35,162 bases of DNA from a virus. Its lineage: Duplodnaviria > Heunggongvirae > Uroviricota > Caudoviricetes. The stretch lies in the IMG/VR virus record IMGVR_UViG_2859810971_000008, positions 1 to 35,162 of that record; one strand, 5' to 3'. Below are positions 4,103 through 35,162 of this stretch, one piece after another (position 1 is the stretch's first letter; every line of letters begins with the position of its first letter). Made by a program: the position numbers and the translations under genes. A model generated the notes under the pieces. The model had not been told where the DNA came from and made no database searches. It saw only the letters and a list, made by a program, of their open reading frames with translations.

Positions 4103-4455
4103 TCAACTGGTGGTGAGTACTTTGGTCTGGAGTTTACGTAATTCATAATATTGATTACACCAACATCATAGATAATCGCCACCTTCTGGCGAGGAGCTCC
4201 TGATGCAATTAATCGCCAGGCCTACGCCCATTATTCAGGGGTAAATTTTGGACGGAGCCCCCAATTCCATCCTCAATTCTCCCTCGCACTGAGGAGTAGT
4301 AAGTGCAATTATTTAAAAAATCGCAAACAGAATATTATCATTTATTCTTGCATTCTGTTAATTAAAACCACACATAAAAACGTTGATACTTGATAAGTAA
4401 GTAGAGTATTATTAATGGTTTTAATAACGAACCTTTTAATCATGAGAAGCCTCAA

Positions 4456-32526: not shown

Positions 32527-32562
32527 TTGACTCGATAAAGTACAAATCGTACTATTTAGCCA
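32527..32562 (+). promoter_or_regulatory. pL promoter with overlapping operator dyad
   Basis: -35 TTGACT (32527-32532), 17-nt spacer, -10 TACTAT (32550-32555); the transcript would begin near ATCAGCAGG as in lambda pL; dyad AGTACAAATCGTACT at 32539-32553 overlaps the -10. Confidence 0.6.
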
Positions 32563-32593: not shown

Positions 32594-32625
32594 ACGCTCT
32601 TAAAAATTAAGCCCTGAAGAAGGGC
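32594..32625 (+). promoter_or_regulatory. nutL (boxA CGCTCTTAA + boxB GCCCTGAAGAAGGGC)
   Basis: Exact lambda-like boxA at 32594-32602 and boxB hairpin at 32611-32625, downstream of pL and upstream of N. Confidence 0.8.
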
Positions 32626-32783
32626 AGCATTCAAAGCAGAAGGCTTTGGTGTGTGTGATACGAAACGAAGCATTGGCCGGAAGTGCGAATCCGGATTAGC
32701 TGCCAATGTGCCATTGCGAGGTGTTTTCGTTCAGGACTACGACTCCCACACACAACCAAAGCTAACTGACAGGAGAATCCAGA

Positions 32784-32878
32784 TGAATGCACAAACACGC
32801 CGCCGCGAACGTCGCGCAGAGAAACAGGCTCAATGGAAAGCAGCAAATCCCCTGTTGGTTGGGGTAAACGCAAAATGA
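32784..32878 (+). pseudogene. N: Antiterminator N, truncated after codon 31 by the IS600-like insertion
   Basis: MNAQTRRRERRAEKQAQWKAANPLLVGVNAK matches the lambda N arginine-rich boxB-binding N-terminus as recalled; reading frame stops at the TGA of the IS terminal TGAGGTG. Confidence 0.8.
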
Positions 32879-32918
32879 GGTGTACTGGCAATAGCGGACA
32901 CTACCATTTGTTCTTTTT

Positions 32919-33737
32919 TTAAGCAGCCATCTGATGATATTTTTCCCTGAAGGCTGCCGGGGAGATATTCCCCAGACGAGAGTGACGACGCTGACGATTG
33001 TAGAAAATCTCAATGTATTCCCGTATTACTGAGATGGCCTCATCCCGGCTCTTAAAACGATAGTGGCTCAGGCTTTCATTTTTCAGCGTTCCCCAGAAGC
33101 TTTCCATCGGAGCGTTGTCGTAACAGTTACCTTTACGCGACATTGATGTTTTCAGACCAAACTGCTCCTGTATGACCCGGTAATCGTATGCGCAGTACTG
33201 TGAACCTCGATCAGAGTGGTGGATTAGCCCGGCAGGTGGGCGCTGGCTCCTGAGCGCCATAAACAGGGCTTTACCTGTCAGCTCTTTTGTCATGCGCTCT
33301 CCCATGGCGTAGCCGACAATTTCGCACGTATAAACATCTTTGATGCCAGCGAGGTACAACCATCCCTCCTGTGTGGCAACATACGTCAGGTCCGCCACCC
33401 AGACCTGATTTGGTGCTGTAGGAGCGAACGTCTGGTTCAGCAGATTTGGCGCAACTGGCAGATTGTGGTTCGGGTTCGTAGTCGCTCTGAACTTGCGTTT
33501 CTGCTTACAGCGTAGCCTCAGCTCCTTACGAAGACGTGCCAGTCGGTCACGACCAACGATGATGCCATTCTCTGCCAGCTCCGTCTGGAGCCGCCGGGTT
33601 CCATATGTTTCGCGAGTGCGGATATGTGCCACCTTAATCTCCAGTTTTAGCCGCTCATCACTTTGTTTTCTGTCTGAGGGTTCATGCTGTACCCAGTTGT
33701 AATAACCGCTCCTGGATACACCAAATACCTGACACAT
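32919..33737 (-). CDS. IS600-like transposase OrfB
   Basis: 272 aa IS3-family DDE transposase (…HSDRGSQYCAYDYR…YDNAPMESFWGTLK…). Confidence 0.8.
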   Translation of the reverse strand: MCQVFGVSRSGYYNWVQHEPSDRKQSDERLKLEIKVAHIRTRETYGTRRLQTELAENGIIVGRDRLARLRKELRLRCKQKRKFRATTNPNHNLPVAPNLLNQTFAPTAPNQVWVADLTYVATQEGWLYLAGIKDVYTCEIVGYAMGERMTKELTGKALFMALRSQRPPAGLIHHSDRGSQYCAYDYRVIQEQFGLKTSMSRKGNCYDNAPMESFWGTLKNESLSHYRFKSRDEAISVIREYIEIFYNRQRRHSRLGNISPAAFREKYHQMAA

Positions 33738-33772
33738 CGCTTCAATGGGAAATTGTTGTCGCCATTGTTCGA

Positions 33773-34075
33773 TTAACGCGTATTTTTCAGCGACTCCTGT
33801 GCAAAATACGCTGTTGCTTTTTTTAATATATCGCGCTCAAGGCGAGCTTCATTTAACGCCTTACGCAGTTGCAGAATTTCAGATTCCAGTTCAGCCACCG
33901 TGCGGGAACCAGGAGTACCGAGCCCTTTTCTGGCGGCGGTAACCCATTGTCCTAAAGTGCCTTCAGGAAGGGATAATCGGGAAGCGCCTTCACTGATCGA
34001 AAGTTGATTTTCAAGAACCGTTCTGACAGCTTCGGCTTTGAACTCTTTAGAGTAACGTTGGGTTTTTCTGCTCAT
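33773..34075 (-). CDS. IS600-like transposase OrfA
   Basis: 100 aa; MSRKTQRYSKEFKAEAVRTVLENQLSISEGASRLSLPEGTLGQWV... HTH plus leucine zipper typical of IS3 OrfA. Confidence 0.8.
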   Translation of the reverse strand: MSRKTQRYSKEFKAEAVRTVLENQLSISEGASRLSLPEGTLGQWVTAARKGLGTPGSRTVAELESEILQLRKALNEARLERDILKKATAYFAQESLKNTR

Positions 34076-34186
34076 TATTAGCTCCTTCTGATGCCATTCT
34101 ATTTCAGGAAGGAGTGTCCGTTAAACTCAGGCTACCTCAGTGCACCCGCCATCGATATCAGCATGGGTAGACAGAAAGATGAGAGA

Positions 34187-34277
34187 GCCGGCGCAAGCCG
34201 GTTTTTTATTTGAATTCACCGACGCCGCTTAATGCGGATTTCTTTTATCTGAACTCGCTACGGCGAGTTTTGTTTTA
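34187..34277 (+). terminator. Three tandem terminator-like hairpins
   Basis: CCGGC-GCAA-GCCGG + TTTTTTATTT (34188-34210); GCCGC-TTAAT-GCGG + ATTTCTTTTA; CTCGC-TACG-GCGAG + TTTTGTTTTA. Confidence 0.5.
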
Positions 34278-34289
34278 TGGAGATGATAA

Positions 34290-34457
34290 ATGCACTTCCG
34301 AGTAACAGGTGAATGGAATGGAGAACCATTCAACAGAGTTATCGAAGCAGAGGACATCAACGACTGCTATAACCACTGGATGATATGGGCGCAGATAGCG
34401 CATGCAGACGTAACCAATATTCGAATTGAAGAACTGAAAGAACACCAAACCGCCTGA
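34290..34457 (+). CDS. Hypothetical small protein (55 aa), unknown function
   Basis: Below the ORF-track cutoff; ATG at 34290 preceded by GGAGATGA; translation MHFRVTGEWNGEPFNRVIEAEDINDCYNHWMIWAQIAHADVTNIRIEELKEHQTA; stop sits within a terminator hairpin. Confidence 0.4.
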   Translation: MHFRVTGEWNGEPFNRVIEAEDINDCYNHWMIWAQIAHADVTNIRIEELKEHQTA

Positions 34458-34470
34458 TGGCGGTTTTTTA
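34450..34470 (+). terminator. Rho-independent terminator
   Basis: CCGCC-TGAT-GGCGG followed by TTTTTTATT. Confidence 0.6.
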
Positions 34471-34483
34471 TTGGAGACAAGAA

Positions 34484-34827
34484 ATGTCAGATTTGGCTAT
34501 GAAGATTTTGAAATGGCAATCGACTGGCGATGTCGGCATCAGTAGCGCAACTCTTGCCTCAATCGCATGTGGACTGAAAAAGAATATCTATGGTCATCAC
34601 TTCGGCGCTCCCCATGACGAGCAGACTTCCGGCGATGCGTTGCACTTGTTGAGCAGATTCCAGAAATCAGAGATTCATTCGACAAGGTTGCAAAGCGCGT
34701 TCCGGCATTCAAAGGCATCCTCAACGAATGGGATTCTCTCGTTGCTCTGTTGAAGTCTGAAATGAAGATACACGGAAACAAAGCACCAGAGACTTACAGA
34801 AGAATCAGCGAGCTACGCAAGGACTAA
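34484..34827 (+). CDS. Hypothetical protein, apparently frameshifted (about 113 aa if repaired)
   Basis: ATG at 34484 behind GGAGACAA; frame 1 decays into R/S-rich sequence while the +2 frame encodes protein-like sequence (…IRDSFDKVAKRVPAFKGILNEWDSLVALLKSEMKIHGNKAPETYRRISELRKD) to a TAA at 34825-34827. Break lies between about 34617 and 34680. Confidence 0.35.
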
Positions 34828-34892
34828 CCATGAAATAACACCGCCTCACACTCGATGAGTCCTGTTCATTTCTCAAGATATCCAGACCTATC

Positions 34893-34918
34893 ATCGCCGC
34901 ATCAATGCGGTTTTTTAT
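34893..34918 (+). terminator. Rho-independent terminator upstream of torI
   Basis: CGCCGCAT-CAA-TGCGG hairpin followed by TTTTTTATT. Confidence 0.6.
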
Positions 34919-34961
34919 TACCTGATTTGCAGGTTCGATTCCCTATTCGGAGATAGCACTC

Positions 34962-35162
34962 ATGCAACACGAACTACAGCCTGATTCACTGGTTGATTTG
35001 AAATTCATCATGGCCGATACTGGCTTCGGTAAAACCTTCATCTATGCTCGGATTAAGTCCGGAGACCTTCCAAAAGCCAAAGTTATCCACGGGCGAGCAA
35101 GATGGTTATATCGTGACCATTGTGAATTCAAAAATAAGCTCTTAAGCCGCGCCAATGGGTAA
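34962..35162 (+). CDS. torI: Excisionase / recombination directionality factor, TorI (AlpA/Xis-like winged helix)
   Basis: 66 aa; MQHELQPDSLVDLKFIMADTGFGKTFIYARIKSGDLPKAKVIHGRARWLYRDH... recalled as essentially the E. coli K-12 KplE1 TorI sequence, unverified. Stop is the last codon of the window. Confidence 0.75.
   Translation: MQHELQPDSLVDLKFIMADTGFGKTFIYARIKSGDLPKAKVIHGRARWLYRDHCEFKNKLLSRANG

Follow-up and report, generated by a model that had tools for sequence, protein, structure and literature searches.

What is a series of terminator-like hairpins doing immediately upstream of the excisionase gene of a lambdoid prophage? The question is raised by one end of IMGVR_UViG_2859810971_000008, whose 35,162 nt form the window analysed here and which ends at the stop codon of torI. 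On its + strand, a 55-aa ORF, a 114-aa ORF with a frameshift, and torI are interspersed with four strong hairpin-plus-T elements and one weak one (Table 1). A preliminary description of this DNA had pointed to an alternation of hairpin-T elements with Shine-Dalgarno (SD)-led small genes, and had proposed that the hairpins insulate torI or belong to small RNAs. The alternation itself is borne out by direct reading of 33400-35162, by a scan of the same stretch for terminator-like sites, and by folding. By its sequence this stretch belongs to the long-known pL operon of lambdoid prophages, of which it forms the distal, exo-xis end. None of it is new: the sequence, the names and part of the annotation have been available for lambda, 434 and HK022 since about 1990, and the region is here joined to torI instead of lambda xis.

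Table 1. Features of the early-left region and of the interval leading to torI, in window coordinates (free energies are for hairpins folded alone; z is relative to shuffles).
Feature	Position	Strand	Details
pL-like promoter	32527-32555	+	promoter scan
nutL, lambda type	boxA 32595-32602; boxB 32611-32625	+	boxA CGCTCTTA; boxB GCCCTGAAGAAGGGC; read directly
N gene fragment, lambda type	32783..32876	+	ATG 32783; reads MNAQTRRRERRAEKQAQWKAANPLLVGVNAK; cut after codon 31
IS600 (IS3 family)	32877..34139	-	99.5% identical to annotated Shigella-plasmid copies of IS600
DpdA-like gene, 3' end (queuine tRNA-ribosyltransferase family)	34140..34232	+	last 93 nt of 266-aa gene; TAA stop 34230-34232
H1	34182-34207	+	core GCCGGC-GCAA-GCCGGT, then T run; -17.2 kcal/mol, z -5.1; passes scan
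H2 (marginal)	34225..34248	+	stem 34225-34228 / 34234-34237, CCGC/GCGG, 4 bp, then TTTCTTTTAT; -6.8 kcal/mol, z -1.5; fails scan
H3	34251-34270 (with T tract 34251..34278)	+	GAACTCGC-TACG-GCGAGTTT, then TGTTTTAT; -11.9 kcal/mol, z -3.4; passes scan
orf55	34290..34457	+	intact 55-aa gene; GGAG 7 nt upstream of start; TGA stop in H4 loop
H4	34447-34466 (with T run 34447..34472)	+	AAACCGCC-TGAT-GGCGGTTT, then T run; -13.1 kcal/mol, z -4.4; passes scan
ORF114 pseudogene	34484..34827	+	ATG 34484, GGAG 7 nt upstream; intended stop TAA 34825-34827
Probable excisionase-like remnant	34845..34895	+	LTLDESCSFLKISRPII; homologous to 3' end of K-12 ypdJ
H5	34896-34911 (with T run 34896..34917)	+	GCCGCA-TCAA-TGCGGT, then TTTTTT; -8.3 kcal/mol, z -3.2; passes scan
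torI leader	34918..34961	+	GGAG 34949-34952
torI	34962..35162	+	66-aa excisionase (recombination directionality factor), phrog_66; RefSeq annotation of relatives

An intrinsic terminator combines a GC-rich stem-loop with a T/U tract, and H1, H3, H4 and H5 have both; H2 is marginal. A pattern scan of 34140-34961 returns five terminator-like sites, against 0.8 +/- 0.9 in shuffled sequence; four are H1, H3, H4 and H5 on the + strand, and the remaining one is H4 read in reverse. The five hairpins first described thus come down to four strong ones and H2, whose short stem is matched in stability by 20 of 200 shuffles, and which becomes a candidate terminator solely through its homology to stronger versions elsewhere. 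Taken alone, H2 would suit the idea that the hairpins are chance structures without function, but the excess of sites over expectation and the conservation of the hairpins in lambda, 434, HK022 and over 100 loci leave that idea scarcely credible. Nor do the first three hairpins, separated by gaps of just 8-17 nt, make a single unit, although they had been taken for a tandem set of three. H1 falls within the final codons of a truncated DpdA-like gene and, among the IMG/VR orf55 loci surveyed, is seen only where the DpdA-like cassette is present; it is the predicted terminator of that cassette. H2 and H3 do stand in tandem, as a conserved pair ahead of orf55.

The 55-aa ORF, absent from the ORF track as the preliminary description had remarked, is a real and conserved gene that already has a name. 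Its product belongs to phrog_676 (E 5e-39), a PHROG family with no function attached, and homology identifies it as lambda orf55 (lambdap35) and ORF55 of phage 434. In lambda, orf55 is the last ORF of the exo-xis region (PMC3824215; PMC9239242). Orf55 has been modelled as a small alpha/beta protein resembling T7 Gp2, with modulation of RNA polymerase offered as speculation (Donaldson 2021; PMC8614690), and a block to host replication initiation has been attributed to the orf73-ea22-ea8.5-orf55 segment, with a possible role for Orf55 (PMC9239242). The broken ORF is, again by homology, ORF114 of phages 434 and HK022 (phrog_1229, E 8e-52, likewise a family with no function attached). Alignment with intact 114-aa relatives from two E. 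coli prophages places its frameshift at a 1-nt deletion between 34619 and 34620, with a premature stop at 34751-34753; since one C is missing by comparison with these relatives, the gene encodes 114 aa rather than the 113 or so first estimated, the frameshift itself having been read correctly.

Both small genes behave as coding sequence. Alleles of orf55 are intact in 70 of 73 cases and those of ORF114 in 30 of 32, and variable sites are distributed over the three codon positions as 12/8/23 and 15/9/33, respectively. Homology searches with the two proteins reveal wide conservation, with 568 matches to orf55 in IMG/VR and 59 protein clusters for ORF114; the absence of such conservation had been named beforehand as grounds for giving up the array, and it is not what is seen. 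The ORF114 clusters are mostly from Escherichia, a Cronobacter cluster being among the named ones, and nearly all named clusters are hypothetical proteins, a few chimeric clusters bearing other names. The AlphaFold model of ORF114 is confident (pLDDT 92.3) and has seven helices, a sequence search of the PDB with an ORF114 profile gives nothing below E 0.1, and searches of Pfam and PADLOC with Orf55 and ORF114 give nothing significant. Two stop codons fall within hairpin loops, that of the DpdA-like gene in H2 and that of orf55 in H4.

How much of this arrangement is already on record? The interval 34236-34919 has 94-97% identity to HK022, 434, mEp043, mEp213 and many Stx phages (megablast against phage records), and the block is not confined to torI prophages. 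The phage 434 record M60848 annotates t-L4, ORF55, ORF114, t'-I, xis and int, and the HK022 record X51962 annotates tL4; mapping of coordinates equates tL4 of 434 and HK022 with H2, and t'I of 434 with H5. These GenBank records with named terminators date from about 1990. In a recent 434 genome record, the terminator ahead of xis is given with reference to PMID 6305007, next to a cII-dependent pI promoter. Lambda reads H2, H3, the 55-aa gene and H4, followed at once by pI and xis, and its H2, H3 and H4 are the predicted terminators t3, t4 and t5 in Table 4 of Bloch et al. (2014; ARNold predictions; PMC4195576), within the region called exo-xis (Sergueev et al. 2002, as cited in PMC3824215).

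With lambda the interval has in common near-identical H2, H3, orf55 and H4, their order and their orientation to pL being unchanged, whereas lambda is without ORF114 and H5, has ea8.5 upstream in place of a DpdA-like gene with H1, and continues from H4 into pI and its own xis-int, where H4 of the window leads toward torI. With 434 and HK022 it has in common the entire block from the H2 T tract through H5, at the identity given above; in those phages, however, ORF114 is intact and the block precedes a lambda-type xis and int with a cII-dependent pI, while in the window it precedes torI, and intS lies at the opposite prophage end. The position of the interval also agrees with that of the named regions, which follow the early-left recombination and ea genes and precede the excisionase gene in the orientation of pL and N: pL, nutL and the N fragment lie upstream of it on the + strand and torI lies downstream, and intact relatives have the order N ... 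ORF55-ORF114-xis.

Upstream on the + strand lie a cI-type repressor gene, the pL-like promoter, nutL and the start of N; the pL/nutL/N stretch has 99% identity to phages annotated with cI, cro and antitermination protein N. The boxA and boxB match those of lambda nutL. Homology to N-bearing phages ends at 32875-32876 and the junction with IS600 falls at 32876/32877; IS600 fills the space from N to the 3' end of the DpdA-like gene, in place of the pL operon. The triplets on either side of IS600 are unlike (AAA and GTG), which suggests that a deletion accompanied the IS and that this was not a simple insertion. The IS600/N junction has no match in species-representative genomes, and the presence of IS600 hints at Shigella, or at an E. 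coli that carries this element, as the host. In vB_EcoP-720R6, an intact relative, the genes run cI and N, then some 6 kb that hold recombination and ea genes, then ORF55, ORF114 and excisionase, and from this one relative the loss of pL operon to IS600 is estimated at about 6 kb. The DpdA-like fragment that remains holds H1. The gene is intact in one related locus, L001 (2293-3093; phrog_887, E 1e-102), and its homologues align to about aa 245-258 only, just before H1. Downstream of the promoter there is thus a nut site but no intact N gene. With N cut short by IS600, the N antitermination system is presumably non-functional in this prophage, and with the operon gutted as well, the pL route to torI is probably dead; normal induction is probably impaired too. 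A pL transcript made here by unmodified polymerase would end in antisense IS600 or at H1-H5. An excision defect of this prophage may be expected.

What, then, would the hairpins do where the operon is whole? The reading preferred here, to which we give a probability of roughly 0.75, is that they would act as intrinsic terminators of the pL operon, read through by N-modified polymerase on induction, and would also serve as joints between cassettes, the pL-torI route of this particular prophage being probably dead. Each cassette would consist of SD, gene, GC-hairpin and T-tract, set head to tail immediately ahead of the excisionase gene, and the order would be the DpdA-like 3' end (H1), tL4 and t4 (H2, H3), orf55 (H4), ORF114 (H5, or t'I) and torI. 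The hairpins would stop RNA polymerase that had not been modified at nutL. Once the repressor was lost, N-modified polymerase from pL would read through all of them, so that the small genes and the excisionase would be expressed on induction only, leaving stray transcripts in the lysogen unable to set off excision. In HK022, the polymerase is modified by put RNA instead of N. The sequence and the old annotations together point to real termination and N read-through at these sites. Insulation of torI by terminators, as the preliminary description proposed, is accordingly not a new idea, tL4, t'I and t3-t5 having been named or predicted before, and it is the reading that appears to fit the evidence best.

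The other proposal, that of small RNAs, has fared less well. Strong terminators can define stable 3' fragments, and the hairpins could in principle end small RNAs, whether independent ones or ones derived from the orf55 and ORF114 3'-UTRs; the best Rfam match, STnc420, does lie over H4, although it scores 21 bits (E 0.53) where the gathering threshold is 70. An Rfam scan at a permissive E-value returned chance-level matches alone, none of them near the gathering score, and a consensus scan for sigma-70 sites found none in 34140-34961. The spacing is equally unhelpful to this proposal, given the short gaps between H1, H2 and H3, and the H3-H4 and H4-H5 intervals are filled by SD-led protein genes with an excess of third-position substitutions. 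Small RNAs are therefore a very improbable explanation of the array.

Somewhat less improbable, though still unlikely, is that the hairpins mainly stabilise mRNA 3' ends or act as processing barriers, tuning the levels of orf55, ORF114 and torI within one antiterminated transcript. During lytic growth of lambda, mRNA levels are unequal across a predicted terminator of the exo-xis region between orf61 and orf73 (PMC4195576), as such tuning would lead one to expect. This orf61-orf73 terminator lies further upstream than the orf55 hairpins (PMC4195576). A stabiliser, however, has no need of the canonical intrinsic-terminator T tract that follows all five hairpins.

Relatives provide a second line of evidence, bearing on the part that the hairpins may play as joints. 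The survey covers 80 IMG/VR loci with orf55 and 80 with torI, the latter being the best-scoring of 434, closely related to one another and not independent samples. Upstream of orf55, the 80 orf55 loci show at least ten unrelated gene contexts. Homology to the window starts in the 3' arm or T tract of H2 in most loci and at H3 in another group, and 73 of 79 left breakpoints fall at 34241-34252. At the H2 position itself, at least three unrelated stems stand before one common T tract: CCTCGC...GCGGGG, the common lambda form; ACCCGC...GCGGGT; and CCGC...GCGG, the form of the window. Downstream of orf55, all loci have CCTGATGGCGG and a T run and then diverge within a few bases. An ungapped heuristic, which stops early, places right breakpoints at about 34461-34466 in 68 of 79 cases; direct reading puts the divergence where the H4 T run ends or immediately beyond it, near 34470. 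Five continuations follow that T run, namely lambda pI-xis, torI directly, ORF114, and two other genes, and ORF114 is in turn followed by H5 and then by lambda pI-xis or torI. H4 and H5 have a 13-nt sequence in common, GCGGTTTTTTATT, and with this joint in both, the ORF114 cassette can be present or absent before the same torI leader. In L001, the DpdA-like cassette is flanked by two copies of GGATTTCTTTTAT. These patterns suggest that phages exchange single-gene cassettes with one another at the hairpin-plus-T elements, which would thus be the joints.

Does the excisionase gene always have a terminator ahead of it? H5, the last terminator-like element before torI in the window, lies about 50 nt upstream of the gene, and a hairpin with a T tract is found at this distance in 77 of 80 torI loci, whatever gene precedes it (H4-type in 53, H5-type in 24; the other 3 have the degenerate form of K-12). 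The same hairpins also precede lambda-type xis, and a third excisionase type, found at ORF114 loci, has a different hairpin ahead of it. Three ORF114 loci (L014, L023 and L026) are without a hairpin before the excisionase gene, which together with the degenerate H5 of K-12 makes such a terminator common but not obligatory. A terminator directly upstream of three excisionase types would fit selection for silence of the excisionase in the lysogen.

The same survey can be read with the weight placed elsewhere. If the hairpins were mainly by-products of modular evolution, kept as cassette joints and not selected to shield torI, the clustering of homology breakpoints at them would be expected, as would the bracketing of the L001 cassette by copies of GGATTTCTTTTAT and the 13-nt joint after which torI can follow either hairpin. 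Joints could equally sit in any conserved intergenic sequence, however, and the recurrence of a hairpin directly before three excisionase types, together with the unrelated stems seen at a single position, is more suggestive of selection acting on the structure than of simple inheritance. An origin purely as by-products is a possibility to be kept in mind, though clearly not the favoured one, and it overlaps and is compatible with the reading of the hairpins as pL-operon terminators.

Substitutions within the stems bear on whether the structures are maintained. Those common in H3, H4 and H5 preserve pairing: an A to G change in H3 makes a U.G wobble in 47 loci, and a T to C change in H5 turns G.U into G-C. 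Changes that break a pair are mostly rare. The exception is in H4, where the fourth base of the stem changes from C to A in 22 of 148 loci; this substitution falls within the final codons of orf55, and the stem keeps a GC core of 4 bp. All the changes are single-sided or wobble changes, with no compensatory double substitution in the stems; the relatives, mostly above 94% identity, are too similar to give true covariation support.

A more far-reaching version of the preferred reading can be put forward, tentatively and with considerable doubt. The joints GGATTTCTTTTAT (at H2) and GCGGTTTTTTATT (at H4 and H5) would be the recombination substrates themselves, and through them single-gene cassettes would move in and out before any of at least three unrelated excisionase genes. 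A ribosome terminating at the stop codon in the loop of H2 or H4 could, in addition, cover the 5' arm of the hairpin, and passage of polymerase toward torI would then be coupled to translation of the small gene upstream.

The nearest well-described setting of torI is KplE1 (CPS-53) of E. coli K-12, which has the same torI gene, 44-nt leader and excisionase-remnant sequence upstream, and likewise carries intS and torI at opposite ends. In the window, the integrase ORF at the very start (1-1158) has 97% identity to the IntS-type integrases of CUS-3, HK620 and HK633, which puts a TorI-type directionality factor at one prophage end and an IntS-type integrase at the other, as in the KplE1 / HK620 / Sf6-type module, whose intS ... 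ypdJ-torI-attR architecture is documented for KplE1 (Panis et al. 2010; PMC2951348). The element between ORF114 and H5 is probably the remnant of the N-terminus of an excisionase-like gene, its profile matches to the phrog_2907 excisionase being weak (E 0.1-0.4). The torI leader is near-invariant over the torI loci: single-base variants affect about 10 positions, most of them in no more than one or two loci; a tRNA scan prompted by GGTTCGATTCC within it found none. An unrecognised promoter in this conserved leader would bypass all five hairpins.

Comparison with the K-12 region upstream of torI, to which the preliminary description had drawn attention, turns up a common sequence only in the last ~120 nt before torI. 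K-12 has no orf55, ORF114 or H1-H4, its H5 is degenerate, and no terminator-like site was detected in its stretch upstream of torI. Among complete E. coli genomes, the best matches to 34100-35162 have 96.3% identity over 96% and 98.0% over 87% of the query, none of them full-length. K-12 reportedly keeps torI silent through Rho-dependent termination, and a terminator ahead of torI agrees with control of KplE1 maintenance by termination in that strain. Two later papers cite related results of Menouni et al. (2013): in one, loss of Rho function is said to lead to excision of defective prophages (PMC5811629), and in the other, inhibition of Rho to raise the copy number of CPS-53 (PMC11551753).

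Small genes of this kind invite comparison with the morons of lambdoid phages. Morons, which Juhala and colleagues and Hendrix and colleagues reportedly described in 2000, are likewise small, terminator-bounded accessory genes that lie between conserved genes with sharp mosaic boundaries. A moron differs in having its own promoter, and hence in being expressed from the repressed prophage. Here orf55 and ORF114 each have a terminator of their own, in H4 and H5, and the moron reading is rejected for want of any sigma-70-like site by consensus scan in the interval examined; the two genes appear to be ordinary members of the pL operon.

In practical terms, the 55-aa ORF should be called as lambda orf55 and the second ORF as an ORF114 pseudogene, and the hairpins deserve the label of pL-operon terminators of the tL4 / t'I type. 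Beyond correct annotation the interval has little importance. What is specific to the window is the IS600-associated loss of N and of most of the pL operon, the frameshift in ORF114 and the DpdA-like fragment that bears H1. The prophage has a full set of late genes, although IS600 has cost it N and the greater part of the early-left operon. The relatives illustrate more widely how terminators stand before several types of excisionase gene and coincide with mosaic joints, and in this they support existing ideas.

The early-left (pL) operon of this prophage is interrupted by IS600, which truncates a lambda-type N gene so that codon 31 is the last one left; on the opposite side the element borders what remains of a DpdA-like gene, its final 93 nt. 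The triplets either side of the element are unlike (AAA vs GTG), which suggests an IS-mediated deletion at this site, and in one intact relative some 6 kb of pL-operon genes lie between N and orf55. With N cut, antitermination is probably beyond this prophage's ability. To judge from the family of the DpdA-like product, intact phages with this gene may carry 7-deazaguanine DNA modification. The annotated ORF reads through H1, a strong predicted terminator hairpin that sits inside it. Since the alignment of homologues ends just 5' of H1, read-through may account for the ORF's final ~10-15 codons.

Features from IS600 to torI and their counterparts in related loci
Feature	Window	Strand	Related locus	Description
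IS600	32877-34139	minus		truncates lambda-type N gene, which starts at 32783
DpdA-like gene, truncated	34140-34232		L001 2293-3093	queuine tRNA-ribosyltransferase / DpdA-like family (phrog_887)
Stop of DpdA-like ORF	34230-34232			TAA, in H2 loop
H4	34447-34466			predicted terminator
Stop of orf55	34455-34457			TGA, in H4 loop
ORF114-H5 spacer	34845-34895		L003 (K-12) 4176-4235, end of ypdJ	homologous; reads LTLDESCSFLKISRPII
Degenerate H5			L003 (K-12 KplE1) 4236-4262	GCCGTCATAGAGCGTA
torI leader	34918-34961			44 nt

Two of the predicted terminators, H2 and H4, hold the stop codon of the preceding ORF in their loops. A ribosome terminating there would cover the 5' arm of the hairpin, and translation of the upstream gene could thus be coupled to termination. 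On the minus strand, too, H4 scores as terminator-like: an A run precedes it and a T-rich tail follows, even though no gene converges on it. In some torI prophages (L091, L096, L101, L108, L118, L124 and others) only the last ~50 nt of the 55-aa gene orf55 are left with H4, fused to unrelated AT-rich sequence, so that the terminator is retained and the gene lost.

The next gene, ORF114, has chimeric relatives in six protein clusters (P0015, P0017, P0027, P0032, P0045 and P0047), where part of it is fused to Ea22-like, Kil, ERF or dATP/dGTP pyrophosphohydrolase domains. These chimeras suggest frequent recombination or frameshift run-ons within the gene, and P0025 (98 aa) may represent the same frameshifted allele as that of the window. 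The spacer that follows appears to encode the N-terminal end of an HTH excisionase; its profile match, to phrog_2907, is weak (E 0.1-0.4).

Among the best 80 of 434 torI loci, the torI leader is near-invariant. Within it, TTGC-N5-TTGC resembles the cII box that lambda pI has at the corresponding position, TTGC-N6-TTGC. The leader also has GGTTCGATTCC, which is reminiscent of the T-loop of a tRNA; ARAGORN found no tRNA. H5, the predicted terminator preceding torI, has the degenerate form GCCGTCATAGAGCGTA in three of these 80 loci (L093, L107 and L112) and in K-12 KplE1, and in all of these its terminator score is lost. We infer that this degeneracy may be the reason that K-12 needs Rho for torI silence.
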